DNA from: Candidatus Campbellbacteria bacterium
GTDB taxonomy: Bacteria > Patescibacteriota > Minisyncoccia > Phycocordibacterales > EsbW-18
Length of the DNA: 57,377 nt
Assembly (NCBI GenBank): GCA_016699465.1
Contig: CP064977.1
Location: forward strand, 685,739 to 743,115
Reading direction: 5' to 3'
Shown: positions 8,718 to 57,377 of the stretch, piece after piece
How positions within the stretch are numbered: the first letter of the stretch is position 1
How the letters are laid out: each line of letters begins with the position of its first letter
The notes under the pieces: model-generated
What the model saw: the letters and a program-made list of their open reading frames with translations, nothing else
Databases searched by the model: none
Told to the model about the DNA's origin: nothing
Made by a program: the position numbers and the translations under genes

Positions 8718-8835
8718 AGGTGGTGTGGTGTGCTTACAAATGAGAAATGGGAGTTGTCCACATTTTCATTAAAAACCTTTTTAAATAAGGGTATATCAGG
8801 ATACAATGTACCTGTTGGAAGGTTTAAATCACGAA

Positions 8836-11800
8836 ATGAAAAACCCGACTTTTTTGCGTTATGTTACAACAGTAGTGCTCGCTCTTTTTCTTGTATGCGG
8901 AACGCTTTTTGCGCATTCAGCACACGCCTTTTCTCTTGATTCTTTTTTGAATACGTCGTCACCACGTTTTGTTCATACAAAGGAAGTCGCAGCATCTTGG
9001 TGGAATGCGTATGCCTACACAGCAAATGCAACTACTGGTCTTGTTGTTGAAGGATTCTTAGCGGTATGTACAGAATCACCAGCTATCCTCGCGTCTCTAC
9101 ACACGACTATTTCAGATATTCTCACAGACGGCGCTGAAGGTGTAATCACAACACTTGTGTATGATACGGTTCCGTTTATTCAAACTGTACAGGATATCAA
9201 TACAACCGTTGCCAATATCTACATCACGGGCGCGCAAGAAACATTTGCATTAGTTGGTGTATATGGTCGCACCGTGTATGAAGCAAATGCATTCGCATCA
9301 AGCATTCTTACAAACGGAGCAGAAGGTGTTATTACACTACTTGCAAACAACGCCACAACATTCGCACGAACACTTTTTGACATCAATACAACCGTTGCCA
9401 ATATCTACATCACGGGCGCACAGGAAACATTTGCATCGATTGCAACGTACGTTGTCAATGTGCGTGATGCAAATATGGCGGTGTCCGCTCTTTTGCTTGC
9501 AGGAGCAAATGATGTTGTGACGACAACTGAAAATAGTATGCATGCTCTTGCGCGCGCACTTCACCAAACGGCGCGTAGTATGCGTGTGGAAGGGCACACT
9601 ACATTTGCCGCAGTATACTCAAGTCTCGTACCGCCACAAGCAACATCAACACAAACACCAGCACCAACACTCTTCCAGAGAGCGCGAACCGCCCTCCGTT
9701 CATGGCTTGGTATCACCACAACGGTCATCACACTACCATCACTTCCAACACCACCAGCACCCGTTCAGCAAGTAACACAGACAACCATCCAAGGACCAGA
9801 ACGCATCATCGAAACACATACGTTCACCAACAACGTTCTCGGTCTTTCACAAGCAGATCTCACGAATGCAATTGCAGGACTTCGTCTCGAGTTGTTGCCA
9901 AAGATTAAACAGGCAATGGGTTCACCAACATACAACCCTCCCGACACCGCATACCTCGAACTCTCAGGTGGCACGCTCACTGGAAATCTTGCAGGCACCT
10001 CACTCACACTCACCAATAATCTTTCTGTTGCAGGTACTTTTGCTGATAGCAGTGGTGATGTGGGAACGGATGGCTACATTCTTCAAACAACAGGCACGAG
10101 TACCAACTGGGTTCCTGCAGCATCATTGAGTGTGACAGGAGATGGTACCTTCTCCACCACATCCGCTGACTACTTCATCACAAGTTCTTCAACCATCGCC
10201 CATGCATCAGGTGTTGCACTCGGCAACGTACTCCAGTGGGACGGAAGTGCCTGGGTTTCAGCCGCGACATCAACGCTTGGCATTGGTACATCGCAGTGGG
10301 TAACAAATAGTTCGGATATTTACTACTCAACAGGCAACGTCGGCATCGGTACTACGTCCCCGTATGCAAAACTTTCTGTCGTTGGTCCGGTTGTGGCTGA
10401 ATCATTTAATGCAACATCAACAACGGCGACGAGTACGTTTGCGGGTGTTTTGTATACTGCGGGTTCTTTTGCGGATAGTACGGGGAGTAAGGGGGTAAAT
10501 GGCATGGTTCTTCAATCAACAAACACTGGTGTGCAGTGGGTGGCCACATCATCACTCGGCATCTCGGGCATCACCGACCACGGACTACTCACCGGACTTT
10601 CTGACGATGACCACACACAATACGCGTTACTTGCCGGACGTTCTGGTGGGCAGACGCTTGTTGGAGGAACGGGGGCAACAGACGATCTCGTTCTTGATGG
10701 TTCTGCCGCAACGGCGGGAAGCGTGACCGTGAGCGAAGACGGAGATATCAATGTGGGTGGATTATTGAGTGTTCGACATAGTAATGTTTCTGCCCCGTAC
10801 TATTCTCTTGCGACGTTTGGATCTGCAAGTACTGGCTATTTGAGTATTTCGCAAGGGGATTCGGTCGGTAGGATTCTCAACTTTTTTTACGGATCTGATA
10901 TGGGGCTTTCGAATGGAAGTAGCCTCTTGTGGTCAGACAGTACAGACGGAGCATTGGGAACAGTAGATACCGGCCTCTCCCGTATCTCTGCCGGAATCCT
11001 CGGTGTTACAAACGGTTCTTCTGGTGGTGGTGCGCTGTATGCAAATTATTTTAACGCAACATCCACAACTGCGACGAGTACGTTTGGGGGACGCATCATC
11101 TCTCCAGGTATCGTTGGGGGAATAACTGGATCTGGGATACTGACACTTGATGGAGACCAGACGGTGGCTGGAAGTGCGTCGGTTGCTGCTAACGGAGTGA
11201 TTTCGTATAATGCGACGCAAAACACTGGGTCAATATCGATCGGGCCTATGAACTACGAGAACCTAGGTAGTGTTGCCTATACCATTGGCGCAGATGCTCG
11301 GTCTGGTCAGCAGGGGATGTTTCTTGCTACTGGTGGGTCGCTGGCGAATCTGGCGATAAGGAACCTGTTCCTTGGTACGGGGAGTACAGATTGGGGTGGA
11401 ACGTTTGTCGCCTTGATTGCTGATGGTGCGAATGCTCTTGCACAACGCAACAGCACGAACGCTCAGAATTTCCGTTTGTATGGCACGTACACTGACACAA
11501 ATAACTATGAACGCTTCACCGCTTCAACAACACAAGGAACCGGTGTTGTGCTCGGCATGGAAACCGCGGGAACAGGTGCGGATAATCTGCATATCATTCT
11601 TTCCCCGGCAGGAACAGGCAACGTCGGCATCGGTACTACGTCCCCGTATGCAAAACTTTCTGTCGTTGGTCCGGTTGTGGCTGAATCATTTAATGCAACA
11701 TCAACAACGGCGACGAGTACGTTTGCGGGTGTTTTGTATACTGCGGGTTCTTTTGCGGACAGTACGGGGAGTAAGGGGGTAAATGGCATGGTTCTTCAAT

Positions 11801-41113: not shown

Positions 41114-42394
41114 ATGAAAATAAAGAATTTTAAGGAGCTAGCTATTTCTACCAAGCGAACTGATGCGCTTTCAATTATACACGCAGGACTTGTGGCGGTT
41201 GATACTCGTGTTGCAATTCAAAAATCTGTGGAGTGTGATGGAAAAACACTGCGTATCGCAGACACAGTATATACACTTTCTGCATACGATCGTGTACGCG
41301 TTGTCGCCGTTGGCAAGTGTTCTGTTGAAGCGGTGTATGCGCTCGAAGAACTTCTTGGTGACGTACTCACTGACGGAATTGCACTTGATGTCGTCCAGGG
41401 TGTTTCAAAAACAGGCACTGTTACTTTTTTGACGGGTACACATCCACTTCCAACACAAATGAATGTGGATGCGACTAAATGCATTCTTGATTTTTTGGAT
41501 TCATCCACAGAACGCGATCTTGTTATTATGAGTATTTCCGGCGGAGGTTCAACACTGGCATCGCAACCACTCAATGGTCTGTCTGTTGATGAAGAATCTC
41601 GAGCAATTGCAGCATTGATGAATGCAGGTGCGCCCATCCAAGACATGAACACCATCCGAAAACATCTTTCACGCGCGCGTGGTGGTGGGTTGGCACAATG
41701 CGCATATCCAGCAACAGTTGCCTCACTTATTTTTTCTGATGTTCCAGGAGATGACATTTCATATATCGCTTCGGGGCCAACCGTTTGTGATACAACAACG
41801 ATTTCAGATGCGCAAGCACTTCTTGTATCGTATGGTCTTGAGGCGATTGGACCGTACCTTATCGAAACACCAAAAGGAACAGAGTTATTTGAAAAGGTGA
41901 CAAATACCATCATTGTTTCGAACAGTATTGCGCTCGAGGCAATGAAAAAAGAATCAATTGTTCGTGGGTATACGGCGGAGATTGTGACCTCAACGCTCAC
42001 CGGAGAAGCACGCAGTGTCGCACACGACATTGTTGAGCGCATACATTCTGCTCCAGAAAAGACGGTCTTGTTATTCGGCGGAGAAACAACCGTTACTTCA
42101 GAAGGTCCTCACGGAATTGGTGGACGTAATCAGGAAGTTGCTCTTGCGGGATTGCGTACGATTGCTGATGGTGAGGTGCTTATTGCATGTGCGTCTGATG
42201 GACGTGATAATACAGATGTTGCAGGTGCAGTGTGTGATACGATAACGATGCACGCCGCGCAAGAAAAAGGTCTTTCAGTTGAAGAGTGCCTTGCATCACA
42301 CAGTTCCTTTCTCTTTTTTGAAAAAAGTGCCAGTCATATTGTGACAGGTGCTACTGGTTCTAATGTGTCGGATCTTATTATTGCGTTAAAATGA
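41114..42394 (+). CDS. Glycerate 2-kinase (DUF4147/MOFRL family)
   Basis: ORF 40994..42394, start trimmed to ATG 41114 because the longer form runs through the csp terminator. GKCSVEAV, GGGSTL, LLFGGETTV, GGRNQE. Confidence 0.8.
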   Translation: MKIKNFKELAISTKRTDALSIIHAGLVAVDTRVAIQKSVECDGKTLRIADTVYTLSAYDRVRVVAVGKCSVEAVYALEELLGDVLTDGIALDVVQGVSKTGTVTFLTGTHPLPTQMNVDATKCILDFLDSSTERDLVIMSISGGGSTLASQPLNGLSVDEESRAIAALMNAGAPIQDMNTIRKHLSRARGGGLAQCAYPATVASLIFSDVPGDDISYIASGPTVCDTTTISDAQALLVSYGLEAIGPYLIETPKGTELFEKVTNTIIVSNSIALEAMKKESIVRGYTAEIVTSTLTGEARSVAHDIVERIHSAPEKTVLLFGGETTVTSEGPHGIGGRNQEVALAGLRTIADGEVLIACASDGRDNTDVAGAVCDTITMHAAQEKGLSVEECLASHSSFLFFEKSASHIVTGATGSNVSDLIIALK

Positions 42395-44838
42395 TATTTT
42401 GTATGAATTCACCATTTATTTTATTGCTCGACGAAGTTACTCTTGCGGATGTATCGCGTGTAGGTGGTAAAAACGCGTCTTTGGGAGAAATGCTCAAAGA
42501 ATTGGGGAGCAAGGGAATCATGGTGCCGTCTGGTTTTGTAACGACAGCCGAAGCGTATCGATTTTTTATGAAGGAAACGGGCATGGATGCGTTTGTTGTT
42601 TCGGTTCTTAAAGGACTTGATACTCACAATATTAAAGATCTCGCGAAGCGCGGAGAAACTATTCGTAAGGCGATTGTAAAAGCACAGATGCCAAAAGAAT
42701 TACGGGCGGACATTGCAACTGCGTACGCAAATATGGAAAAGAAGTATGGAAAAGGAGTGAGTGTCGCCGTGCGCTCAAGTGCAACCGCTGAAGATCTTCC
42801 TGGTGCGTCGTTTGCTGGAGAGCACGAAACATACCTTGGTATTGTGGGTGTTGACCGTGTGGTGCTAGCAGTGCAGTCGGCAATGGCGTCACTCTTTACC
42901 GATCGTGCAATTTCATACCGCGTTGATAAAGGATTTGATCAATCAACAATTGCACTTTCTGTAGGTATTCAAAAAATGGTTCGTTCTGATGTTGGCGCAT
43001 CGGGCGTGATGTTCACCATTGATACGGAAACGGGTTTTAAGAATGCGGTGGTGATTAATGCTGCGTGGGGACTTGGAGAAATGGTTGTGCAAGGAAAGGT
43101 GACTCCTGATGAGTACGTGGTGTACAAGGAAGCGCGAGCAAGGGGAAAACTTCCCATCATCAACAAAACACTCGGTTCAAAACTTTCAAAGATGATATAT
43201 GGAAAAATGGGGAAGGGGGTAAAGCAAACAAAAGTTATTGCGACGAAAGAACGTGAGCGAGATACGTGGGTGCTTTCTGAAACAGAAATTCGCACGTTGG
43301 CGCAGTGGGGTATTGAAATTGAGAAACACTACACAGCACGCGCTGGAGCATGGACTCCAATGGATATTGAGTGGGCAAAAGATGGACGCGATGGAAAGTT
43401 ATATATTGTGCAGGCACGACCAGAAACGGTTCAAGCGCTTCGTGACAGGGCCGTTATTGTTGAGTACACACGCCACGGAAATGGTCCTGTCTTGTGTGAG
43501 GGGATGTCTGTTGGAAGTAAAATTGCAACAGGAAAAGCACGCGTTATCCTTTCACCGAAGCAAGCACACACATTTAAAAAAGGTGAAATACTTGTAACTG
43601 ATATGACGGATCCTGATTGGGAGCCGATTATGAAAATTGCATCAGCAATCGTGACCGATAAAGGAGGGCGAACATCGCATGCGGCAATTGTGTCTCGTGA
43701 GTTGGGTATTCCTGCAATCGTTGGTTCAGAAAACGCGACGCGAAAAATAAAAACAGGAATGGATATTACCGTTGATACCACAGGAACAAAAGGTGTTGTC
43801 TTTAAGGGCACATTGCAGTTTTCTACAGTGCAACACAACATCGCACATCTTCCTAAACCAAAGACGAGCGTTATGGTAAACGTTGCGTCTCCAGAACACG
43901 CATTTGAGGCATCGTTTTTACCAGTATCAGGTGTTGGTCTTGCGCGCGAGGAATTTATTATTGCGTCTGTTGGAGTGCATCCATCCGCACTGTTGGAGTA
44001 CAAAAAACTTTCGCCAGCGTTACGAAAACAAATTGATGTAAAAACACGGGGGTGGGATGATAAGGTTGCGTTTTATGTTGATCGACTCTCGTACGGTATT
44101 GCTACTATTGCTGCTGCGTTTTATCCACGTCCAGTGATTGTGCGATTTTCTGATTTCAAAACAAATGAGTACCGCACACTTCTTGGCGGTGAGGCGTATG
44201 AACCACAAGAAGAGAACCCAATGATTGGGTGGCGAGGCGCATCTCGGTATTCTGATGCTCGTTTTGCACCAGCGTTTGCGTTGGAGTGTAAGGCAATAAA
44301 ACGTGTGCGAGACGACATGGGATTTGATAACGTCATTCCCATGGTGCCGTTTTGTCGAACACTCAAAGAAGGTGAACAGACACTGATGATCATGGCACAC
44401 GAAGGACTTGCATCTGAATTTGCACAATTACAAGGACACCGACGTTCAGAAAAAGCAGTTCCTGTGTACATGATGTGTGAAATCCCATCGAATGTTATTT
44501 TGGCAGAAAAATTCTTGGATATGTTTGACGGTATGTCGATTGGGTCAAATGATTTGACGCAATTAACACTCGGACTTGATAGAGATGCAGGGGCGCTTTC
44601 GTACATTGGCAATGAAAATAACGACGCAGTAAAAGAGCTTATTTCAAAAGCTATTACCGCATGTAAGCGTCGCGGAAAATACATTGGTATTTGTGGGCAA
44701 GGTCCTTCGGATATTCCTGAATTTGCACGATTCCTTGTGCAAGAAGGAATCCAAAGTATGTCACTCAATCCCGATGTGGTTATTAAGACAATAGATGCAA
44801 TTTACAAGACAGAGCAGTCGCTCTCTAGAAAAGTCTAA
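42391..44838 (+). CDS. ppsA: Phosphoenolpyruvate synthase (pyruvate, water dikinase)
   Basis: VGGKNASLGEM, phospho-His region GGRTSHAAIVSRELGIPA, C-terminal PEP-utilising TIM barrel. ATGA overlap with the upstream stop; ATG 42403 is an alternative start. Confidence 0.9.
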   Translation: MIFCMNSPFILLLDEVTLADVSRVGGKNASLGEMLKELGSKGIMVPSGFVTTAEAYRFFMKETGMDAFVVSVLKGLDTHNIKDLAKRGETIRKAIVKAQMPKELRADIATAYANMEKKYGKGVSVAVRSSATAEDLPGASFAGEHETYLGIVGVDRVVLAVQSAMASLFTDRAISYRVDKGFDQSTIALSVGIQKMVRSDVGASGVMFTIDTETGFKNAVVINAAWGLGEMVVQGKVTPDEYVVYKEARARGKLPIINKTLGSKLSKMIYGKMGKGVKQTKVIATKERERDTWVLSETEIRTLAQWGIEIEKHYTARAGAWTPMDIEWAKDGRDGKLYIVQARPETVQALRDRAVIVEYTRHGNGPVLCEGMSVGSKIATGKARVILSPKQAHTFKKGEILVTDMTDPDWEPIMKIASAIVTDKGGRTSHAAIVSRELGIPAIVGSENATRKIKTGMDITVDTTGTKGVVFKGTLQFSTVQHNIAHLPKPKTSVMVNVASPEHAFEASFLPVSGVGLAREEFIIASVGVHPSALLEYKKLSPALRKQIDVKTRGWDDKVAFYVDRLSYGIATIAAAFYPRPVIVRFSDFKTNEYRTLLGGEAYEPQEENPMIGWRGASRYSDARFAPAFALECKAIKRVRDDMGFDNVIPMVPFCRTLKEGEQTLMIMAHEGLASEFAQLQGHRRSEKAVPVYMMCEIPSNVILAEKFLDMFDGMSIGSNDLTQLTLGLDRDAGALSYIGNENNDAVKELISKAITACKRRGKYIGICGQGPSDIPEFARFLVQEGIQSMSLNPDVVIKTIDAIYKTEQSLSRKV

Positions 44839-44840
44839 AT

Positions 44841-45863
44841 ATGAAAGCAGTATTTTTTGGATGCTCGGCTGAGCATGAAGCGTACCTTACACGACGAATG
44901 ACTGAGCGCGCGCTTGGTGTTGATGCGGTGTATCTTCCTGAGCACATTTCAACGGACACGTTACATCACGCGGATGATGCACAGATTGTTTCTGTGTTTA
45001 GTTCGTTTCCAATTACCGAAACAGAATTTCAGCAATTGCCACACATGAAGTATCTCACGACGCGTTCAACGGGATATGATCACATAGATCTTGTTGCGGC
45101 AGGACAGCATGGAGTGGTGGTTTCAAATGTTCCTTCGTATGGAGAAAATACTGTTGCCGAACACGCGTTTGGACTCCTTCTCTCGCTCTCAAAGAAAATT
45201 TATGAAGGGTACACCCAAATTCGTGAGAAGGGAGATTTTAATTTCAGTGCACTCCAAGGGTTTGATTTGAAAGGCAAGACGCTCGGCGTGATTGGTGTAG
45301 GTCGTATTGGATGCCACAGTATTGCTATTGCAAAAGGCTTTGGTATGAACGTGTTGGCGTATGATGTTGTTCCCAACCTCGAACGGGCAACACAACTCGG
45401 TTTTTCGTACGTGTCTCTCGACGAGCTCTTGGCGCAGAGTGATGTTATTACACTGCATGTTGCACACACACCAGAGACAAACCATCTAATAAATGAAGAA
45501 ACAATTGGAAAAATGAAACGCGGTGTTGTCCTCATTAATACGAGCCGCGGGGCTGTTGTGGATACAGAGGCGCTTATTAAGGGCCTAACGACAGGGCAAA
45601 TTGGGGGTGCCGGTCTTGATGTGCTTGAGGAAGAAGGGGTGATTCGCGATGAAATGCAATTTGTTCTTTCGGGAAAAGGTGAAGGGCACGATTTGCGAAC
45701 AGCTCTTGCAAATCACGTACTTATCGATATGCCAAACGTTATCGTGACTCCACACATTGCGTTCAACACACAAGAAGCGGTTGAACGTATTTTGGAAACA
45801 ACAATTGACAACATCGAGGCGTTTATGAAAGGAGCTCCACATAACGTTGTGACACAGGTATGA
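44841..45863 (+). CDS. D-isomer-specific 2-hydroxyacid dehydrogenase
   Basis: GKTLGVIGVGRIGCHSIAIAKGFGMNV, TLHVAHTPETNHLIN, PHIAF. Confidence 0.85.
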   Translation: MKAVFFGCSAEHEAYLTRRMTERALGVDAVYLPEHISTDTLHHADDAQIVSVFSSFPITETEFQQLPHMKYLTTRSTGYDHIDLVAAGQHGVVVSNVPSYGENTVAEHAFGLLLSLSKKIYEGYTQIREKGDFNFSALQGFDLKGKTLGVIGVGRIGCHSIAIAKGFGMNVLAYDVVPNLERATQLGFSYVSLDELLAQSDVITLHVAHTPETNHLINEETIGKMKRGVVLINTSRGAVVDTEALIKGLTTGQIGGAGLDVLEEEGVIRDEMQFVLSGKGEGHDLRTALANHVLIDMPNVIVTPHIAFNTQEAVERILETTIDNIEAFMKGAPHNVVTQV

Positions 45864-47008
45864 GTCGGATTTCAAACATACGCGCGGATGTCATGCAAGA
45901 TTCTCGCGGAGAGGACACTATTTCGTGCACAGTGACACTTGAGAGTGGTGTTGCAGTGAGTGCATCTGTACCGCAGGGAAAGAGTACTGGATCGCATGAG
46001 GCAATTTCAGTGTCAGCACACACTGCAGTTGCACATATACAGGCACTAACACCGCAACTCATTGGACGTGAGAGTGGTACTCAAAAAGATATTGACGCAC
46101 TGCTGTGTGAACGTGCGGGTGAACAAAAAAAAGAACTTGGAGGAAATACAACACTCGTCATTTCGATTGCGGTAGCGCGTGCACACGCACAAGAGATCGG
46201 TATTCCATTGTGGAGATATCTTCGTGAGCAGGCGCATATAGAAACATTTCCAAGTCCGTTTCCACGACCCTTTGTCAATATCATTAATGGCGGAGCACAC
46301 ACTGGAAATACAAGACTCTTTCAAGAATACATTGTTGTTCCTCAGGAAGATTCAATAGATGCGTGTCTTTCATTGGCAGAACAGATATTGGACACTATTG
46401 GAAAAAAAATTGACACACTGTACCCAGGAACACCGCGAGGAGATGAGGGTGGATATGCACTCCAGACACGTGATCCACTTGAACCCTTTTCGTTGATTCA
46501 TGCTGTAGGAGGGAATGTTGTGTTTGCACTTGATGCAGCGGCAACGGAAAGTGCGTATTCAGACGATGAACGAACGCGACTTTTTGGTGAGATACAGTCG
46601 GCATTTCCGTTGCGTTTTTTGGAAGATCCGTACGGTGAGGAGTCATTTACATTATTTGCACAGTTACAAAAAACATTTCCACAGGTGGTTATTGTTGGAG
46701 ATGATTTGACGACAACGAATAGCATCCGTATCAAAAGGGCACATGAGGAAAAAAGTATTACTGGTGTGATTATTAAACCAAATCAAATTGGTACGGTGAG
46801 TGAATCGCTAGAAGCGGTGCGAAATGCGCGTGGAAATGGTTGGACGGTTATTGCGTCACATCGTTCAGGGGAAACAGACGATGCCTTTATTGCTGATTTT
46901 GCGTATGGAGTAGGTGCAGATGGAATAAAAATTGGAGCACCTGTCCAGCATGAAAGAAAGGCAAAATATGATAGACTACGTGCCATTGGAAGAGAGATAA
47001 CAACATAA
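45860..47008 (+). CDS. eno: Enolase (short form, 382 aa)
   Basis: DSRGEDTISCTV, SVPQGKSTGSHEA, IKPNQIGTVSE, SHRSGETDDAFIADFA. Confidence 0.85.
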   Translation: MSRISNIRADVMQDSRGEDTISCTVTLESGVAVSASVPQGKSTGSHEAISVSAHTAVAHIQALTPQLIGRESGTQKDIDALLCERAGEQKKELGGNTTLVISIAVARAHAQEIGIPLWRYLREQAHIETFPSPFPRPFVNIINGGAHTGNTRLFQEYIVVPQEDSIDACLSLAEQILDTIGKKIDTLYPGTPRGDEGGYALQTRDPLEPFSLIHAVGGNVVFALDAAATESAYSDDERTRLFGEIQSAFPLRFLEDPYGEESFTLFAQLQKTFPQVVIVGDDLTTTNSIRIKRAHEEKSITGVIIKPNQIGTVSESLEAVRNARGNGWTVIASHRSGETDDAFIADFAYGVGADGIKIGAPVQHERKAKYDRLRAIGREITT

Positions 47009-49936: not shown

Positions 49937-50833
49937 ATGTCAGACCGCATTGCGTCTAACCCTTGGTATGTGTACGGAGGTGCTTTTGGTGCACTCGTTT
50001 TTCTTGTATGCAGTGTACTTGTGTTTAAAGTGCCGTCAAAAGATTTTTTTGTGACTCGTGTAGGTGATATAAAAACATATACGGATACGAGATATGGATT
50101 TCGTTTTAGCTATCCTGCGTCGTTTGTACTTTTTCCGCCTGCGTCGTCTGAAAAAAGCTACACGGCCATAGAGAGGTGCTATACGAAATCCTCTAATGAA
50201 GAGTGTGAAGCGTTATTCGCAAAATTTTCTGAAAAAGATAACGATGTCTTTCAAGAAATAAATAAGGACGCAATACGAGAATATACGGAACAACAAAATG
50301 CCTTATTAGAAGATATCTCTGGTGCATCTGATTCAATATATATTCCCAGAAAAGATATTCGGGTTACACTCATAGGTCTTGATGAGTTTCGAACAAAGGA
50401 CGAGATACCTGTTTTGTGCCAAAAAGCACAACCTGTCAGCCCGGATCTTCTCCCTGACGAAATATGTCGACTTGAATCGGCATCACGTGAACTAATGGAG
50501 CAGGAAAAGGATGCCATTTTAAATGGGCCTATTGGGTCGATTGTTCCACGTTTATATTTCGATGTCATGCCTGGGGGAATAGTCGTGGAAAGTAAGAATA
50601 TTAGAGGAATACGTGGATTGTGGATTTCTACAAATACCGATTATTACAACAGCTCTTTCACCACGTATACTAAAGACGGAAGCCGCCTGAATATTACCTT
50701 AGAATTAGTAGGCCTTTCTGGTTCTGGAATCATCAGGTCCTCGTATACTCCAGAACAGCAACAGCAAGCAGAAAATGACCCACGAAACAAAGTGTTAGAT
50801 GAGATTATTTCAAGTTTTGAATTTTTAGAGTAA
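49937..50833 (+). CDS. Membrane-anchored hypothetical protein
   Basis: An N-terminal TM segment (WYVYGGAFGALVFLVCSVLVF), then a ~260-aa soluble part. No family recognised. Confidence 0.6.
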   Translation: MSDRIASNPWYVYGGAFGALVFLVCSVLVFKVPSKDFFVTRVGDIKTYTDTRYGFRFSYPASFVLFPPASSEKSYTAIERCYTKSSNEECEALFAKFSEKDNDVFQEINKDAIREYTEQQNALLEDISGASDSIYIPRKDIRVTLIGLDEFRTKDEIPVLCQKAQPVSPDLLPDEICRLESASRELMEQEKDAILNGPIGSIVPRLYFDVMPGGIVVESKNIRGIRGLWISTNTDYYNSSFTTYTKDGSRLNITLELVGLSGSGIIRSSYTPEQQQQAENDPRNKVLDEIISSFEFLE

Positions 50834-51335: not shown

Positions 51336-51749
51336 ATGACAATACTCATACCTATATTTGCCAGCTCGCTCTTTCTTCTCGCACTCTTTTTTGCGTTTAA
51401 GGAATGGGAGATACGGCGTGATACCACAACGACACTTACGCGCTTTTTGCAGAAGCATTCTCCTGCTGCACGTGCATATTTTGTGCGTGGTGTTAGCCGC
51501 GTCATTGTTTTTCTTGTAGCTTTTCTCCGCAATGTTCGAGGTCTTGTGGTGTATGTGCTTCACCAGCTTCTGACGTGGGGACGTACGGCGGTGGTGGTGC
51601 TTGCAGCACACATGATTCGTGCTGCGCGCGGTGAAAAGCTTGTGGCACAAGGGAAGGTTTCGTCTGAATATTTTAAACACCTTCACGACCACAAGAAAAA
51701 AATACAAAAAATACAGGCTGGAAATTCTCAGGAAAATATTGTAGACTAG
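51336..51749 (+). CDS. Hypothetical membrane protein
   Basis: 137 aa, 2-3 hydrophobic helices, basic tail. No family recognised. Confidence 0.5.
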   Translation: MTILIPIFASSLFLLALFFAFKEWEIRRDTTTTLTRFLQKHSPAARAYFVRGVSRVIVFLVAFLRNVRGLVVYVLHQLLTWGRTAVVVLAAHMIRAARGEKLVAQGKVSSEYFKHLHDHKKKIQKIQAGNSQENIVD

Positions 51750-52055: not shown

Positions 52056-52301
52056 CTAGAACCAGTAAAAGTCGTTTTTCCCAGCATTCTGGTAGTCGAG
52101 ACCGTCGGCACCGTGGTGGGTCGTACGGCCACTGATGGTGCCGGTAAAGTTCACATCAGCCATCTTCAGAAGTTCTTCTTGTGACGCAAGGGGATAGCTT
52201 GTTGCAAGACGCTCAACAGCTAGGCGCGCCTCCGATGCTTCTGAAGCGGAAAGATGGCCACCGCTTTCCAATTCGTTGATACGAGAAGTGGCTTCGCTCA
52301 T
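52056..52301 (-). CDS. Hypothetical 81-aa protein (orphan cassette 3)
   Basis: ATG preceded by GAGGAGG with an 8-nt spacer. G+C-richer than its flanks. MSEATSRINELESGGHLSASEASEARLAVERL...NDFYWF. No family recognised. Confidence 0.6.
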   Translation of the reverse strand: MSEATSRINELESGGHLSASEASEARLAVERLATSYPLASQEELLKMADVNFTGTISGRTTHHGADGLDYQNAGKNDFYWF

Positions 52302-52424
52302 GTTGTGTTCCTCCTCTGGTTTGGTCAGTTCTGTTTGTATACTATACCCACCATTTTAAGTACGCAAATCTTTGTTACGAAGATGTTTTATTTTAGGTCA
52401 AATCAAAGGTATAATCAGCACATC

Positions 52425-53144
52425 ATGGAACAAAAAGGATTTTACCACCCACTGACTGCCGCTATTCGTGATTTTGAACGTATCTTCCGTGGCATGGGTT
52501 TTTCTGTGGCTACAGGGCCAGAAATTGAAGACGAGTGGCACAACTTCACAGCACTCAATGTTCCCAAGGACCACCCGGCACGTGATATGCAGGACACATT
52601 CTGGCTTCCAGACGGACGCGTCATGCGTACGCACACATCTCCCGTGCAAGTACGCTATATGGAGACACACAAGCCACCTATTCGTATTATTGTGCCCGGA
52701 AAGGTATATCGTAACGAGGCGACTGACATGACGCATGAAGCGCAGTTCTATCAACTCGAAGGGCTGGTTGTTTCAGAAGATACAACACTCGCACACTTGA
52801 AAGGTGTACTTGAAACTTTTTTCAGAGAATTTTTTGGTGGTAGTGTTGAAGTTCGACTTCGTCCCAGCTTCTTTGGATTTACTGAACCGTCAGTTGAAGT
52901 TGATATGCGACTTACCGGCGAACATGTGTCTCCAAAACTTCGCGACCGTTGGATTGAAGTGATGGGAGCAGGTATGGTGCATCCAAATGTGCTCAATAAT
53001 GCAGGTATTGATCCGAAACGTTACCAAGGGTTTGCTTTTGGTGGAGGTGTGGAGCGTCTCTGTATGCTCAAGTGGGGAATTGATGACGTGCGATTGTTCC
53101 ACACCGGGGATTTACGCCTAACCATGCAGTTTCCTACAGAATAA
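52425..53144 (+). CDS. pheS: Phenylalanyl-tRNA synthetase alpha subunit (minimal 239-aa form)
   Basis: ORF 52254..53144, start trimmed to ATG 52425 (9 nt after TATAAT 52410-52415); the longer form overlaps the divergent gene. HPARDMQDTFW, FRPSFFGFTEPS, GAGMVHPNVL, GFAFGGGVERL. Confidence 0.9.
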   Translation: MEQKGFYHPLTAAIRDFERIFRGMGFSVATGPEIEDEWHNFTALNVPKDHPARDMQDTFWLPDGRVMRTHTSPVQVRYMETHKPPIRIIVPGKVYRNEATDMTHEAQFYQLEGLVVSEDTTLAHLKGVLETFFREFFGGSVEVRLRPSFFGFTEPSVEVDMRLTGEHVSPKLRDRWIEVMGAGMVHPNVLNNAGIDPKRYQGFAFGGGVERLCMLKWGIDDVRLFHTGDLRLTMQFPTE

Positions 53145-53150
53145 TATGAA

Positions 53151-53273
53151 TCCCGTTAGAAATCACTCATGTATGTTCGTGCCCAATATTCAAAAAACGT
53201 CGATATATTATTCGTATACTCACGAAGGTGTGATAACAATGGAAACGCACCACGTTTCTAATTTCTAACGGGA
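53151..53273 (+). mobile_element. MITE-like inverted-repeat element, copy 3 (123 bp) between pheS and pheT
   Basis: TCCCGTTAGAAAT ... ATTTCTAACGGGA. The 14-bp perfect inverted repeat (53150-53163 vs 53261-53274) is flanked by a direct TGAA (53147-53150 and 53274-53277). Confidence 0.5.
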
Positions 53274-55696
53274 TGAAAGTTTCACGTGCATGGCTTCAAA
53301 CATTTTTTGAAAAACCACTTCCCGAAGTGAGTGAGCTTGAACATGTTCTCACATTCGGTGCATTTGAAATTGAGGGAACAGAAAAAGTTGGAGAAGATAC
53401 CGTGCTAGATGTGAAAGTGTTACCTAATCGTGCACACGATTGTTTGTGCCATCGGGGTATTGCAAAAGAATTCTCTGTTTTGTGCTCCATACCGTTATCG
53501 CACGATCCGCTGTCGGGTCCGGTTCCTTCGTTTGAAAAAAATGGAGTTCTACACGTTTCTGTTGAAAAAGAAAATGCGTGTCCTATATACCAAGCAGCTC
53601 TTGTGAAGGGTATTACCGTTGGCCCATCTCCGAAGTGGCTCTCAGAGCGACTCGAAACACTTGGTCAACGTTCAATAAACAATGTTGTTGATGCGACAAA
53701 CTTTGTCATGCTCGAACTCGGACAACCACTCCATGCATTTGATGCACAAAAGTTGGGAGATGCGGATGGCGCAAAATCAATTCGTGTGCGTATGGCACGT
53801 GCGGGGGAGAGTATCACTGTTCTTGGGGGCACAACGTACGAACTAGATGAAACTATTCAACTCATTACTGATGCATCAGGAGATACACCACTCGCAATTG
53901 CGGGTATTAAAGGTGGAAGTCAGGCAGAAGTGGATACAACAACGGTAGACATTGTTTTGGAATCAGCGAAGTTTCATCCAACACTCACGCGCAAGGCGTC
54001 GCAAAAATTAAAATTGCGCACTGATGCGTCACATCGTTTCGAAAATGAGATTCCCGATGAATTACCACTGTACGCACTTCAAGCTCTTGTTGCGCTTATT
54101 GTCGATGTGGCAGGAGGGCGCGTTAGTGGATATGGAGGTTTTGAGAGGGCTCGTGCGGCACTTCCATACAAGATCGGCATTTCATCACGTGAGGCAAATA
54201 AACTTCTTGGAACAGCTCTGTCAGACACCGAGCTCTCACAGATTTTTGATCGGTTTTCATTCTCGTATACAAAAATAGAAAATCCACGAGAGGTGATTGT
54301 GCAAAAAGCTCGAAGTGTCATTGGTGCTCCGTATAAGCGTATGGCACGAATTCGATATGATACCCCAGAGAGTTTCAACTGCTCGTCCTTGACTGCATGG
54401 TGTGCTATTGAGGCGGGATTTTCACTTGGTGTTGCGCGTATTGCAATTGATCAATATGCGTATCTCGATGAAATTACTGAGAGTGAACTCCAGCCGGGCG
54501 ATTTTGTATTTACTAACACAGAAGTGGTGCGTACTATTGACGGAGAAAATTATTCCACAGCCTTGGACAGAATGGTCAAAGACGAAGCAATACGGACACA
54601 TACACTTGAATATGTCCCAGGAACTGACGTGGGGCACGGTGTTGATCATATGGGTATCTATGTCGGTGATGGAAAAGTTGTTCACGCGTCATCCGATCTC
54701 GGTGGAGTTGTTGAAGAAGACCTTGCAACAAGTGCTATTTTTGCAAAAGAAAAATGGTATCGCCGACTAGTGTCTGATACGACGCCAAGATTCTCGGTTA
54801 CGGTGCCATTTGAGCGTATGGATATGCGTTTTAGCGCTGACGTGTGTGAAGAAATTGGACGAGTGTATGGCTACGAACATGTTCGCGCGCAAGACTTACC
54901 TACTGCGTCACACCGTGTTGAAGTAAATCCTATTTTCGTCGCTCAAGAAGTTGTACGTAAGGTTCTCGGTGAATGTGGATTTTTTGAAGTATATTCGTAC
55001 TCATTGTGTGAAAAAGGTGATATACAACTTGCAAATGCACTCGCAAGTGATAAGGCTTTTGTGAGAAGCTCGCTTGCATTGGGTATTGGTGAATCGCTCG
55101 CAAAGAATGAATACTATGCGCCGCTCCTCGGTCTTTCGGATGTAAAGATTTTTGAGATTGGAAACGTATACAATGCAACAGGAGAACATTTGCGCGTGTG
55201 TCTAGGTGTGCGTCCTCTTACTCAAGCAAAAAAATCTGAGAAGACAAACGCAATGCTTCTTGAGGCTAAAGAAAAACTCGAGTCGGCATTTGGCGTTGAT
55301 GTGAACGAATATATTTCTGAAGAGACGCTCGAGTTTGATCTTGGTGTTATTGCACAAACACATATCCTCACACAGCCGGAGTTTGCACCCGTTGCACAGG
55401 CTACTCAGTTTGTACCGATGTCATCGTATCCGTTTGTGTTGCGTGATATTGCAGTGTGGATTCCTGATGGTACAGGAAAGGGAGAAGATATTGTGGCTCT
55501 AGTAAAAGAGAAAGGTGGCACACTTTTTGTTCGTGCTGATTTATTTGATACGTTTACCAAAGATGGTCGCACATCGTACGCGTACCACCTTGTATTTCAG
55601 TCACGTGAAAAAACACTTTCAGATGAAGATATTAATAGCATTATGAATGCGGTCACGGAAGCATTGAATGCGCGTGATGGTTGGGTAGTACGATAG
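53273..55696 (+). CDS. pheT: Phenylalanyl-tRNA synthetase beta subunit carrying an inserted NlpC/P60-like domain
   Basis: B1 (MKVSRAWLQTFF...), B3_4 (NVVDATNFVMLELGQPLHAFD), a B5-like segment, core (FSADVCEEIGRVYGYEHV), and FDX-ACB C-terminus (FVLRDIAVWIP). The insert at aa 337-505 has GAPYKRM, FNCSSL, PGDFVF, HMGIYVGDGKVVHASS. Confidence 0.9.
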   Translation: MKVSRAWLQTFFEKPLPEVSELEHVLTFGAFEIEGTEKVGEDTVLDVKVLPNRAHDCLCHRGIAKEFSVLCSIPLSHDPLSGPVPSFEKNGVLHVSVEKENACPIYQAALVKGITVGPSPKWLSERLETLGQRSINNVVDATNFVMLELGQPLHAFDAQKLGDADGAKSIRVRMARAGESITVLGGTTYELDETIQLITDASGDTPLAIAGIKGGSQAEVDTTTVDIVLESAKFHPTLTRKASQKLKLRTDASHRFENEIPDELPLYALQALVALIVDVAGGRVSGYGGFERARAALPYKIGISSREANKLLGTALSDTELSQIFDRFSFSYTKIENPREVIVQKARSVIGAPYKRMARIRYDTPESFNCSSLTAWCAIEAGFSLGVARIAIDQYAYLDEITESELQPGDFVFTNTEVVRTIDGENYSTALDRMVKDEAIRTHTLEYVPGTDVGHGVDHMGIYVGDGKVVHASSDLGGVVEEDLATSAIFAKEKWYRRLVSDTTPRFSVTVPFERMDMRFSADVCEEIGRVYGYEHVRAQDLPTASHRVEVNPIFVAQEVVRKVLGECGFFEVYSYSLCEKGDIQLANALASDKAFVRSSLALGIGESLAKNEYYAPLLGLSDVKIFEIGNVYNATGEHLRVCLGVRPLTQAKKSEKTNAMLLEAKEKLESAFGVDVNEYISEETLEFDLGVIAQTHILTQPEFAPVAQATQFVPMSSYPFVLRDIAVWIPDGTGKGEDIVALVKEKGGTLFVRADLFDTFTKDGRTSYAYHLVFQSREKTLSDEDINSIMNAVTEALNARDGWVVR

Positions 55697-55697
55697 T

Positions 55698-56201
55698 ATG
55701 CGTTTAGATATTCCCTTTATTTCTCAGTACGATGCACGTGTTCCAGAAAGCTGGCGTCCACGTGCGTGTAGTGTGACAAATCTCTACATGGTTCTTTCGT
55801 TTTTTAATACTACGGAAAATGTAACCACTACGTCGCTCATTCAAGAAGGGGAGTCAATAGGTGCGTACGGTCCGCGTGGGTGGACACATGAAGGTATTGT
55901 TCGTCTTGCACGCAATCATGGAATACGTGCATATGCACAGGAATTTCGAAGCTCGAATACCACATGTGAGGAAAAGCTTACTACAGAAGGAATAGAAAAA
56001 ATCAAAGAAGTGCTTGCAAGCGGGTGTCCGACCATTGTATCTGTTCAAAAGGAAAACGGGTCGTACCACACGATTACTGTTGTGGGAGAGTCTGATGTGG
56101 GATTTCTCTGTCATGATCCTGAGATTGGTGAATATCAAGAAGTATCCTTAGAAACATTTCTCAAACGATGGAGAAAATTAGCCATTTTCTTTGAGGTATA
56201 A
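55698..56201 (+). CDS. Peptidase C39-like (C39_2/BtrH-type papain-fold) protein
   Basis: LDIPFISQ...RACSVTNLYMVLSFF (Cys region) and SYHTITVVGESDVGFLCHDP (His region). No signal peptide. Confidence 0.65.
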   Translation: MRLDIPFISQYDARVPESWRPRACSVTNLYMVLSFFNTTENVTTTSLIQEGESIGAYGPRGWTHEGIVRLARNHGIRAYAQEFRSSNTTCEEKLTTEGIEKIKEVLASGCPTIVSVQKENGSYHTITVVGESDVGFLCHDPEIGEYQEVSLETFLKRWRKLAIFFEV

Positions 56202-56269: not shown

Positions 56270-57377
56270 ATGCCTAAAAAGACCGAACCAAAAATAAAAG
56301 AATCGTCGTATACAGCATCAGACATCACTGTTCTCGAGGGTCTTGATCCAGTACGAAAGCGTCCGGGTATGTACATCGGTACGACTGGTCCTGATGGATT
56401 ACACCACCTTATCACTGAGGTGTTTGATAACTCACGCGATGAAGCGATGGGTGGATATGCAAATGATATTGAGATTGTACTTCTTCCAGGAAAACGTGTT
56501 CGTGTGACGGACAACGGTCGTGGTATTCCCGTCGACAAGCATAAACAGACAGGTGTTTCTGCCCTTCAAACCATCATGACGGTTCTCCACGCGGGAGGAA
56601 AATTTGGTGGTGAAGGATATAAAGTTTCGGGAGGATTGCACGGGGTGGGAGTATCTGTGGTGAACGCACTCTCAAGTTACATGCGCACTGACGTCTATCG
56701 CGACGGAGGGCACTACATGCAGGAATATCATCAAGGTAAGCCAAAAGGCAGTACGAAAAAACTGGAGAGTTCTAATTTGCGTGGAACGACACAGACGTTC
56801 GAGGCAGATCCAGAAATTTTTCCAGAAATTGTGTACAACTGGGACAAGATTGTTAACCACATGCGCCAACAGGCGTACTTGGTGCGCGGATTGCGTATTG
56901 CAGTGATAGACGCACGAGAAGCGGGTGACACGGTAGATTTTAATGAAACAATGTACACACGAGATCTCGGGCTCGATGTGCCATCAATGACGTTTTACTT
57001 TGAAGGTGGGCTTATTTCATTCATTCGACACCAAAATGAATTTCAGAAATCATTGCACAAAACTATTTTCTTTGTTGAAAAAGAACAAGAGGGTGTTGAT
57101 GTTGAAGTTGCATTGCAATACGTTGATGATGTTACGAATCACATTTTTGCGTTTGCAAACAATACGTACAACAGTGAAGGGGGAACACACATCACTGGAT
57201 TTAAGACTGCACTAACTCGAACCCTCAACATATACGCAAAGAAAACAAATATTTTAAAGGAATCAGACGGCCCGTTTTCTGGAGATGATGTGCTCGAGGG
57301 GCTCTCTGCTGTCGTGTCTGTAAAACTTCGAGAGATTCAATTCGAAGGTCAAACAAAAGCAAAACTGGGAAGTGTTG
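56270..57377 (+). CDS. gyrB: DNA gyrase subunit B (3' end outside window)
   Basis: Frame open from ATG 56270 to the window edge. YTASDITVLEGLDPVRKRPGMYIGTTG, GLHHLITEVFDNSRDEA, DNGRGIPVD, GGLHGVGVSVVNALS. Preceded by the extended -10 TGcTATACT. Confidence 0.95.
   Translation, partial: MPKKTEPKIKESSYTASDITVLEGLDPVRKRPGMYIGTTGPDGLHHLITEVFDNSRDEAMGGYANDIEIVLLPGKRVRVTDNGRGIPVDKHKQTGVSALQTIMTVLHAGGKFGGEGYKVSGGLHGVGVSVVNALSSYMRTDVYRDGGHYMQEYHQGKPKGSTKKLESSNLRGTTQTFEADPEIFPEIVYNWDKIVNHMRQQAYLVRGLRIAVIDAREAGDTVDFNETMYTRDLGLDVPSMTFYFEGGLISFIRHQNEFQKSLHKTIFFVEKEQEGVDVEVALQYVDDVTNHIFAFANNTYNSEGGTHITGFKTALTRTLNIYAKKTNILKESDGPFSGDDVLEGLSAVVSVKLREIQFEGQTKAKLGSV

Follow-up and report, generated by a model that had tools for sequence, protein, structure and literature searches.

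The window analysed here is a stretch of 57,377 nucleotides from a Candidatus Campbellbacteria genome (contig CP064977.1, positions 685,739 to 743,115 of the forward strand). Near its downstream end lie the adjoining genes for the two subunits of phenylalanyl-tRNA synthetase (PheRS), pheS and pheT, followed by a gene for a papain-like cysteine peptidase and by gyrB. Within the B5 domain of the synthetase beta subunit, PheT, is nested a complete cysteine hydrolase domain of the NlpC/P60 family, of the canonical C40 type. The domain was first recognised from the letters of the DNA and the translations of its open reading frames (ORFs), referred to below as the sequence-only reading; its identity, position, spread and probable role are considered here. 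The two synthetase genes and the nested domain comprise:

52425 to 53144, plus strand: pheS, encoding the alpha subunit in a short form of ~239 amino acids (aa); Pfam tRNA-synt_2d, 310.6 bits, ORF residues 59–293.
53273 to 55696, plus strand: pheT, encoding the beta subunit of 807 aa, directly downstream of pheS; Pfam, NCBIfam and PDB matches to PheT, and an AlphaFold model.
53694 to 53963, plus strand: stretch of the B3/4 domain with the editing-site residues T142, N143, H154, G211 and E230; alignment to Thermus and conservation among orthologues.
54161 to 54280, plus strand: N-terminal half of B5, aa 297–336 (beta1, two helices, beta2); secondary structure of the model and group-specific conservation.
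54281 to 54787, plus strand: NlpC/P60 (C40) papain-like cysteine hydrolase domain, aa 337–505; Pfam, PDB sequences, AlphaFold with Foldseek, and insert-less relatives.
54380 to 54382, plus strand: codon of the catalytic Cys370 (FNCSS); orthologues, standalone forms and translation.
54533 to 54589, plus strand: 19-aa sub-insert, aa 421–439, which follows the PGD strand of the NlpC/P60 domain and precedes the strand that bears the catalytic His.
54647 to 54649, plus strand: codon of the catalytic His459 (VDHMGIY); orthologues, and alignment with the segment around the catalytic His in Acd24020 and other NlpC/P60 enzymes.
54683 to 54685, plus strand: codon of the third triad residue, His471 (VVHAS); orthologues.
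54788 to 54877, plus strand: C-terminal half of B5, aa 506–535 (beta3, helix); the Pfam B5 stretch at 501–534 and group-specific conservation.

The host protein is probably the housekeeping beta subunit. Its domains run in the order B1, B3/4, B5 with the nested NlpC/P60 domain, the B6/7 catalytic-like module and B8/FDX-ACB, and B2 is missing. Pfam places B3_4 at residues 102–281, B5 in two stretches (the second at 501–534), tRNA_synthFbeta at 544–670 and FDX-ACB at 717–807, in agreement with the domain order given by the sequence-only reading. The same reading had noted that the OB-fold tRNA-binding insert is absent; accordingly Pfam gives no tRNA_bind match, and the NCBIfam profile match begins only at profile position 157. 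The AlphaFold model of full-length PheT has a mean predicted local distance difference test score (pLDDT) of 93.8 and a predicted template modelling score (pTM) of 0.78. In a structure search it matches 27 bacterial PheT chains at E ≤ 1e-39, and its matches to CtdA correspond to the B3/4 domain. The score against NCBIfam pheT_bact (TIGR00472), 368.9 bits, lies below the equivalog cut-off of 402.65; neither this score nor the missing B2 argues against a housekeeping subunit, as B3_4, B5, the catalytic-like module and FDX-ACB are all found in order with pheS adjoining. Judged from the locus, a paralogous ‘PheT-related’ protein distinct from the true beta subunit is unlikely, since the gene sits where the pheT of insert-less relatives lies and its core domains are complete. 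Public names of insert-bearing PheT proteins (P0017, P0064, P0025, P0006) vary between ‘C40 family peptidase’, ‘phenylalanine--tRNA ligase beta subunit-related protein’ and ‘hypothetical protein’, probably because the pheT_bact score falls below its cut-off. Such annotations, including ‘PheT-related’, can make an essential pheT seem absent in metabolic or completeness analyses.

The PheRS of the window is minimal in both subunits (52254–53144 and 53273–53400): PheS is without the N-terminal coiled coil and the B1 domain of PheT passes straight to B3/4. The listed pheS ORF starts at 52254; homology runs from MEQKG at 52425, which gives a translated start of MEQKGFYHPL. In Thermus the PheS coiled coil is important for tRNA binding. 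Compensation by the insert for the lost coiled coil or the lost B2 OB-fold was considered and rejected, because insert-less relatives show the same reductions: PheS is equally short in relatives with and without the insert, and insert-less Paceibacteria PheT proteins, which align from residue 1 of the B2-less protein and match it in length, appear from these alignments to share its layout. A role for the insert as a substitute for a degenerate editing site was likewise rejected. Residues T142, N143, H154, G211 and E230 of B3/4 align to Thermus T249, N250, H261, G315 and E334, which we take from the PheRS literature to be the residues of the post-transfer editing site, and they are invariant or at least 90% conserved among 116 orthologues, so that nothing is being replaced by the insert.

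The identity of the insert is established by profile, sequence and structure. NLPC_P60 (PF00877; Pfam gathering cut-off 23 bits) scores 37.5 bits in the whole of PheT and 43.6 bits for residues 337–505 alone. NCBIfam and PDB sequence matches of the insert are solely to peptidoglycan NlpC/P60 hydrolases (RipC, p60, EntFM, MepS, Acd24020). Modelled alone, the insert has a pLDDT of 94.0 and a pTM of 0.90, and all 49 of its Foldseek matches in the PDB at E ≤ 1e-3 are NlpC/P60 proteins, well in excess of what chance would give; nearly all bear the annotation of a peptidoglycan hydrolase. Acd24020 (7cfl) ranks first, with a template modelling (TM) score of 0.89; CwlO, LytE, MepS, RipB and the YkfC-type enzyme 3h41 are also found. 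The fold is papain-like alpha+beta in non-permuted order, with the Cys on the N-terminal helix and the His on the following beta-strands. A significant profile or structural match for residues 337–505 was what the sequence-only reading had staked its claim on, and both exist; the motifs it quoted are present in the translation, as are Cys370, His459 and His471.

Other identities for the domain were examined. LRAT, or H-RAS-like suppressor acyltransferase (PF04970; cut-off 24.3 bits), reaches 18.7–21 bits over ~20 residues around the His motif, and an LRAT-type acyltransferase was rejected on account of this short sub-threshold match. Searches by Pfam, NCBIfam, PDB sequence and Foldseek show no similarity between the insert and the editing or trans-editing domains B3/4-CtdA, AlaX, YbaK/INS and DTD. 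Neither B5::NlpC/P60, the module formed by B5 together with the hydrolase nested in it, nor the C39_2 peptidase encoded downstream matches any PADLOC defence-protein model at E ≤ 0.01, and a defence-system component was rejected for this reason. The sub-insert at residues 421–439, of sequence TIDGENYSTALDRMVKDEA, is found in ~40 of 120 orthologues, about one third, in a lineage-specific manner, and adds two short strands; it is the least confidently modelled part of the insert (block means 77–87).

In the model B5 consists of beta1 (300–303), two helices, beta2 (331–335), the insert, beta3 (506–510) and a helix (521–532), a layout that places the hydrolase at the tip of the beta2–beta3 hairpin. 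When 63 insert-less relatives are aligned, the alignment breaks at residues 333–337 and 505–507, which makes the boundaries first proposed, 337–505, accurate to within a few residues. The insertion point had been said to hold about 12 residues in E. coli; in the insert-less Paceibacteria relatives and in Thermus, the proteins compared here, it holds ~2–9. B5 is of the helix-turn-helix type and has been described as ‘DNA binding-like’ (PMC3275996).

A protein search with PheT returned 119 other clusters, 41–80% identical, from Campbellbacteria, Kaiserbacteria, Yonathbacteria and other Paceibacteria. PF00877 is annotated on 119 of the 120 listed homologues, the exception being P0040 (643 aa). 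Cys370 and His459 are each conserved in 119 of 119 orthologues and His471 in 115, with Tyr in the other four; Y354, R389, D393, Q394, G409–D410 and F413 are likewise conserved, and with them the family motifs PY, PRxxxDQ and GD-F, down to 41% identity. These residues suggest that the hydrolase is apparently catalytically active. Mean pairwise identity is 45% for the insert and 46% for the backbone (Pearson r 0.51), and hence purifying selection on the insert is as strong as on the synthetase around it.

A search of 1.84 billion representatives, clustered at 50% identity, with a profile of the insert gave 189 clusters at E ≤ 1e-30, and a scan of one genome per species found 299 loci that encode the module. 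Among the first 80 PheT loci, 17 have the insert and 63 do not. On a neighbour-joining tree of the insert-stripped PheT backbone, a crude tree of Kimura distances without support values, like that of the module mentioned below, and used solely for interleaving and for the non-monophyly of standalone forms, insert-bearing and insert-less proteins are interleaved. The survey of orthologues that had been proposed thus finds the insert in ~300 species-level Paceibacteria genomes and its absence from many close relatives, and the impression that the architecture is unusual is borne out. Two loci (L037, L053) are insert-less yet carry the insert-type B5 signature described below, and another (L015) is insert-less yet has a C39_2 gene downstream; these point to secondary losses of the insert. 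These comparisons are of loci and not of whole genomes, and second copies of pheT or other paralogues elsewhere in the genomes lie outside their scope.

Such repeated loss without visible change in PheT, the B5 signature left behind in L037 and L053, and the patchy distribution on the backbone tree are what might be expected if the insert were a functionless passenger in a permissive loop, decaying or purely structural. We regard this as very improbable: the triad is kept in 115–119 of 119 orthologues, the domain is conserved like the backbone across 41–80% identity and occurs in ~300 species-level genomes, and it is retained as a separate gene where PheT has been dismantled.

The insert is coupled to one domain of its host. 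When 136 insert-bearing PheT proteins are compared with 52 insert-less ones, the nine backbone positions most tied to the insert all lie in B5: G302, R506, E307, Y299, R519, V508, I335, Y532 and S304. The frequencies with and without the insert are 97% and 6% for G302, 93% and 8% for R506, 88% and 12% for E307, 78% and 4% for Y299, and 85% and 12% for R519. No co-variation of comparable strength is seen in B3/4, the catalytic-like module or B8, the strongest outside B5 being ≤0.45. The resulting signature consists of Y299, K300, G302, S304 and E307 in the N-terminal half of B5 and of R506, V508, R519 and Y532 in the C-terminal half. Its confinement to B5 suggests that this domain has adapted to the hydrolase, whether by forming an interface with it or by contributing to a substrate site. 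By analogy B5 may cap the hydrolase; the co-varying residues themselves show only that the two are coupled.

Immediately downstream lies a second peptidase gene, which the sequence-only reading did not mention. The last two features of the locus are:

55698 to 56201, plus strand: Peptidase_C39_2-type papain-like cysteine peptidase, 167 aa; Pfam PF13529, 47.7 bits over the full profile.
56270 to 57377, plus strand: 5' part of gyrB, which runs off the window; a typical GyrB N-terminus on translation, forming the conserved downstream border of the locus.

The start codon of the C39_2 gene (cut-off of the Pfam profile 24 bits) follows one base after the pheT stop, and residues Q10, C24 and H124 of its product are conserved in 59–60 of 62 homologues. 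A scan for promoters and terminators gave nothing above background except one promoter-like site just upstream of gyrB. Among loci with enough flanking sequence, insert-bearing pheT is followed directly by a C39_2 homologue in 40 of 71 and has one within 6 kilobases (kb) in 11 more (51 of 71), compared with 1 of 55 insert-less loci, counts that ignore shared ancestry and include two duplicate loci. The two domains also occur together in a single polypeptide. P0223 (397 aa) joins the module to C39_2 with 52.1 bits for NLPC_P60 and 29.5 bits for C39_2, and P0249 (392 aa) does so with 40.1 and 21.6 bits, the latter just under the cut-off; the fusion genes lie at 8001–9194 of L081 and 370–1548 of L082. 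The C39_2 peptidase is probably the functional partner of the insert. Both domains are catalogued as endolysin catalytic domains and are found together in single endolysins (PMC13284279, PMC5017753).

It might be asked whether such a pair acts on cytoplasmic proteins or peptides other than murein, in leader removal or in the cleavage of isopeptides or other conjugates. C39-type peptidases cleave leader peptides, and among PDB sequences the C39_2 profile finds its closest matches in a putative C39-like peptidase and in the peptidase domain of ComA; the papain-like relatives of NlpC/P60 include isopeptidases, and both enzymes, with their conserved catalytic residues, would reside in the cytoplasm. 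The matches to C39 proper are nevertheless weak (E ~3e-4 to 8e-4), the PRxxxDQ and PY motifs are those of gamma-D-Glu endopeptidases and not of the isopeptidase branches, and no candidate substrate gene is conserved beside the unit in the loci examined. We therefore consider protein processing of this kind unlikely.

The module also exists outside PheT. Among the best matches of the insert profile are eight clusters of standalone proteins of 199–233 aa, each consisting of a Met followed by a complete B5 with the nested NlpC/P60 domain. They keep the triad, with the Cys invariant, and the B5 signature Y-K-x-G...E...R. The possibility that these short matches are broken pheT genes was rejected, since the eight clusters share the same start and end, have a different upstream gene and are followed by C39_2 or gyrB. 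Four of the contigs that encode standalone modules (L084–L087) share the neighbourhood of the window locus. The order is rpsB-tsf-...-PheRS gene-module-C39_2-gyrB in L085 and PheRS gene (opposite strand)-module-gyrB in L086 and L087. In L084 it is glycosyltransferase-module-C39_2-gyrB, and no pheS adjoins. The succession of module, C39_2 and gyrB seen in the window is thus also found in L084 and L085. In L081 the fusion gene of P0223 lies away from any pheS locus, among genes for ftsW, murG, scpA/B, a Peptidase_S11 carboxypeptidase, mraY and a CAP-domain protein.

The PheRS gene beside the standalone module encodes a protein of 375–413 aa in which tRNA-synt_2d is joined to FDX-ACB. In the PDB it most closely matches human mitochondrial PheRS (3e-60; bacterial alpha subunits reach 5e-37), and in NCBIfam it falls just below the cut-offs of pheS_mito (247 against 258) and of the ‘PheS-related mystery ligase SrmL’ (257 against 300). 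Judged by these similarities the protein appears to be a monomeric PheRS of bacteria, an enzyme that would have no editing activity. The arrangement occurs at 14 species-level genome loci and on metagenome contigs L085–L088, and no pheT is present within these loci. The monomeric PheRS genes lie at 6853–7998 (plus strand) of L085 and 6797–7963 (minus strand) of L086, and also in L089–L094, L096–L098, L136, L139, L145, L147 and L156. On the crude tree several clusters of standalone forms are nested among embedded ones, and the standalone P0148/L083 is close to the embedded forms of L138 and L140 (distance 0.39–0.41), which suggests that fission may have occurred more than once. B5::NlpC/P60 is therefore independent of the rest of PheT.

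The proximity to PheRS raises the question of tRNA-linked chemistry. The sequence-only reading had suggested an extra editing, deacylase or aminoacyl-transfer activity, and the domain could serve in this way in cis or in trans; in one variant, Phe or a near-cognate amino acid would pass from tRNA-Phe or from the adenylate to Cys370, to be hydrolysed or passed on. The domain does lie physically within an aminoacyl-tRNA synthetase, and the standalone module nearly always adjoins a PheRS gene. As the monomeric, mitochondrial-type PheRS is without a B3/4 editing domain, a trans-acting factor would make sense there. Conserved basic residues (K300, R497/R498, R506, R519) are present in the module, and B5 is of a nucleic-acid-binding, ‘DNA binding-like’ type of fold (PMC3275996). 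However, the editing residues of B3/4 are fully conserved, the positions that co-vary most strongly with the insert are all in B5, and the insert is missing from many close relatives whose PheRS is equally minimal. The isoelectric point of the module, at 4.9–7.7 acidic to neutral, is atypical of RNA binders, and all family motifs of the module are those of peptide-bond DL-endopeptidases. The unit is also adjacent or fused to a C39_2 peptidase, and we know of no role for C39_2 peptidases with tRNA; in L084 it is retained without an adjoining pheS. The suggestion thus finds no support in the intact B3/4 site, in the co-variation, in the insert-less relatives or in the standalone and C39_2-fused forms, and we think tRNA-linked chemistry improbable. 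Less probable still is that B5::NlpC/P60 constitutes a new aminoacyl-tRNA station, at which B5 would bind tRNA-Phe by its acceptor end, in cis or in trans beside monomeric PheRS, and a thioester on Cys370 would serve for proofreading or, with C39_2, for transfer to the wall or another acceptor. If this were true, the module would represent a tRNA-dependent transferase or editor with a papain fold, unrelated to all known editing folds and to those of the Fem and L/F transferases.

The cellular location of the unit is suggested by the ends of the proteins. PheT starts MKVSRAWLQTFFEK, which belongs to the B1 domain, and the standalone modules start M..YK(I/L)G, which is beta1 of B5. No signal peptide, lipobox, transmembrane segment, LysM, SH3b or wall-binding domain was seen in PheT or in the standalone modules by reading of the sequences and by Pfam, and no signal peptide was seen in the C39_2 protein; the absence of signal peptides was judged by reading the sequences themselves. 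An autolysin would carry an export signal, a wall-targeting module or both, and neither PheT nor the standalone modules do. Because all three kinds of protein begin with folded domains and have no export signal or wall-binding module, the unit should act in the cytoplasm.

A wall hydrolase that is nonetheless exported, freed by lysis or by a non-classical route to remodel the cell's own wall or to breach that of the host bacterium on which these epibionts live attached, would account for the wall DL-endopeptidases that make up all the sequence and structure neighbours of the insert, and for the endolysin-type combination of C39_2 and NLPC_P60. Neither the 57-kb window nor the flanking DNA of the first 80 related loci contains another NlpC/P60 gene; these regions cover only small parts of the genomes, and secreted paralogues may exist elsewhere. 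Against export stands the lack of a signal peptide, lipobox, transmembrane segment or wall-binding domain in PheT, the standalone modules and the C39_2 protein. PheRS, moreover, is large, essential and cytoplasmic, and to nest an exported enzyme there would be maladaptive. We hold export to be doubtful. Of the moonlighting cell-wall function first suggested, an activity of the cell-wall type stands, since it fits the family resemblance better than tRNA-linked chemistry does, and its site is probably the cytoplasm in view of the missing signal peptide.

The hydrolase, then, probably has a job of its own that is not part of tRNA charging. Its retention as a unit with or without the rest of PheT, and its repeated adjacency or fusion to C39_2, argue that its chemistry belongs neither to phenylalanylation nor to editing of the B3/4 type. 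The reading we prefer, with somewhat less than even confidence in it as a whole, is that B5::NlpC/P60 and C39_2 form an autonomous cytoplasmic unit which probably cleaves murein-type peptides and for which PheRS is the carrier. In this model B5, having co-evolved with the insert, would act as scaffold or accessory domain of the hydrolase, in the role that SH3b domains play in YkfC-type enzymes, and the resulting enzymatic unit would work with the C39_2 peptidase encoded directly downstream. PheRS would be a constitutively expressed carrier and not a partner in the chemistry. The substrates would be small murein-type peptides with gamma-D-glutamyl-diamino-acid amide bonds, such as wall turnover products, precursors and salvaged peptides. 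Cleavage of the gamma-Glu bond, via a thioester intermediate on Cys370, would fall to the NlpC/P60 domain, and that of another bond of the same substrate to the C39_2 enzyme. This choice of substrate is suggested by the gamma-D-Glu-diamino-acid endopeptidases that are the neighbours of the insert, by the retention of their motifs and by the pairing of C39_2 with NLPC_P60 in endolysins.

The autonomy of B5::NlpC/P60 is much better supported than its substrate, and several points weigh against the reading as a whole. The substrate would be assigned from family resemblance only, the neighbourhood of cell-wall genes is a single case (L081), and most characterised NlpC/P60 and C39_2 wall hydrolases are extracytoplasmic. 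As to the partnership, a C39_2 gene is lacking within 6 kb in 20 of the 71 loci with the insert, and the counts are not adjusted for shared ancestry. The unit lies beside a PheRS gene in nearly all loci, even where it stands alone; inherited gene order need not be the whole explanation of this adjacency, which could point to a functional link with PheRS that persists. B5, too, could have been retained for docking to PheRS and not as an accessory domain that binds substrate.

Several other features of the window may be recorded. An ORF of 1963 aa at 8806–14697 (plus strand) ends in a Peptidase_S74 domain (49 bits) and shows a weak C1q-like similarity. Peptidase_S74 is an intramolecular chaperone of endosialidase and tail-fibre proteins, and by this resemblance the ORF may encode a giant fibre or adhesin such as one would expect at the surface of an epibiont. 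Genes for pyruvate phosphate dikinase, a D-2-hydroxyacid dehydrogenase and enolase (42391–47008, plus strand) lie upstream of the block of translation genes, a run that fits the fermentative metabolism expected of Patescibacteria. Within that block, an ORF of 298 aa between rpsB and tsf (49937–50833, plus strand) and one of 137 aa after tsf (51336–51749, plus strand) have no Pfam match; the gene after tsf in L085 and two genes between tsf and pheS in L086 likewise have none on record.

The locus is of interest in several respects. A complete papain-like cysteine hydrolase is nested in a domain of a synthetase, an arrangement not met with in the literature searched, and in a major uncultured lineage it is conserved in ~300 species-level genomes. 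Comparison of the relatives defines a testable unit, in that B5::NlpC/P60 and C39_2 form one module which relatives nest, split off or fuse. If murein-type peptides are degraded in the cytoplasm, the unit would provide a route of amino-acid or cell-wall salvage in the highly reduced, host-dependent Patescibacteria; if tRNA is the target, it would represent a new class of editing or transfer enzyme. It offers a natural example of domain insertion followed by co-adaptation of the host domain, with a chimera that outlives the dismantled host protein, and also a case in bacteria where a monomer of the mitochondrial type has apparently taken the place of the (alpha-beta)2 PheRS.

It is known that aminoacyl-tRNA synthetases acquire accessory domains, and the domain itself is an ordinary member of its family. 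The insert resembles the peptidoglycan DL-endopeptidases (Acd24020 7cfl, CwlO, LytE, MepS/Spr, RipC, p60) in its Pfam family, its non-permuted fold (TM up to 0.89), its Cys-His-His triad and its PY, PRxxxDQ, GD-F and H-x-G-I-Y motifs. These enzymes, however, are secreted proteins or lipoproteins with signal peptides and often with LysM, SH3b or coiled-coil modules, whereas the insert has no export signal, is nested in a B5 loop, has a 19-aa sub-insert in some lineages and carries ‘PYKxGAS’ in place of ‘PYxWGG’. Phage endolysins may hold C39_2 and NLPC_P60 in one polypeptide (PMC13284279), as do P0223 and P0249, and resemble the gene pair of the window in this combination. Endolysins, however, have lysozyme or wall-binding domains in addition, and they work from outside or at the time of lysis; the pair of the window has no such domains and lies within a locus of housekeeping translation genes.

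Compared with the beta subunit of heterotetrameric PheRS (E. coli 3pco, Thermus 1pys), PheT of the window has the same B1, B3/4 editing residues, B5, catalytic-like module and FDX-ACB, with pheS upstream. It differs in having no B2 OB-fold, a PheS without coiled coil, a 169-aa enzyme in the B5 hairpin and a sub-cut-off NCBIfam score. A precedent for a cytoplasmic papain-like enzyme fused to an ATP-dependent ligase is the CHAP amidase of glutathionylspermidine synthetase/amidase. There, however, the fusion is terminal and not nested, both activities act on the same metabolite, and CHAP belongs to another branch of the superfamily.

The closest functional analogy for a B5-capped enzyme would be the YkfC-type gamma-D-glutamyl-L-diamino-acid endopeptidases, whose B. 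cereus orthologue 3h41 is a significant structural match of the insert. In YkfC-type enzymes the substrate range of the NlpC/P60 domain is set by an accessory domain packed on the active site, and they act on free murein peptides and not on the sacculus. The accessory domain here, in contrast, is a winged-helix B5 and not an SH3b domain, and the catalytic domain is inserted into it and does not follow it; the window locus is also without a gene context of the ykfABCD type, the partner being a C39_2 peptidase. A full-text literature search found no description of the NlpC/P60-in-PheT architecture, which is visible in automatic annotations. What appears to be new is the nesting in the B5 hairpin, the co-adaptation of B5, the C39_2 partner and the persistence of B5::NlpC/P60 as a gene of its own or as a fusion, next to a monomeric PheRS.

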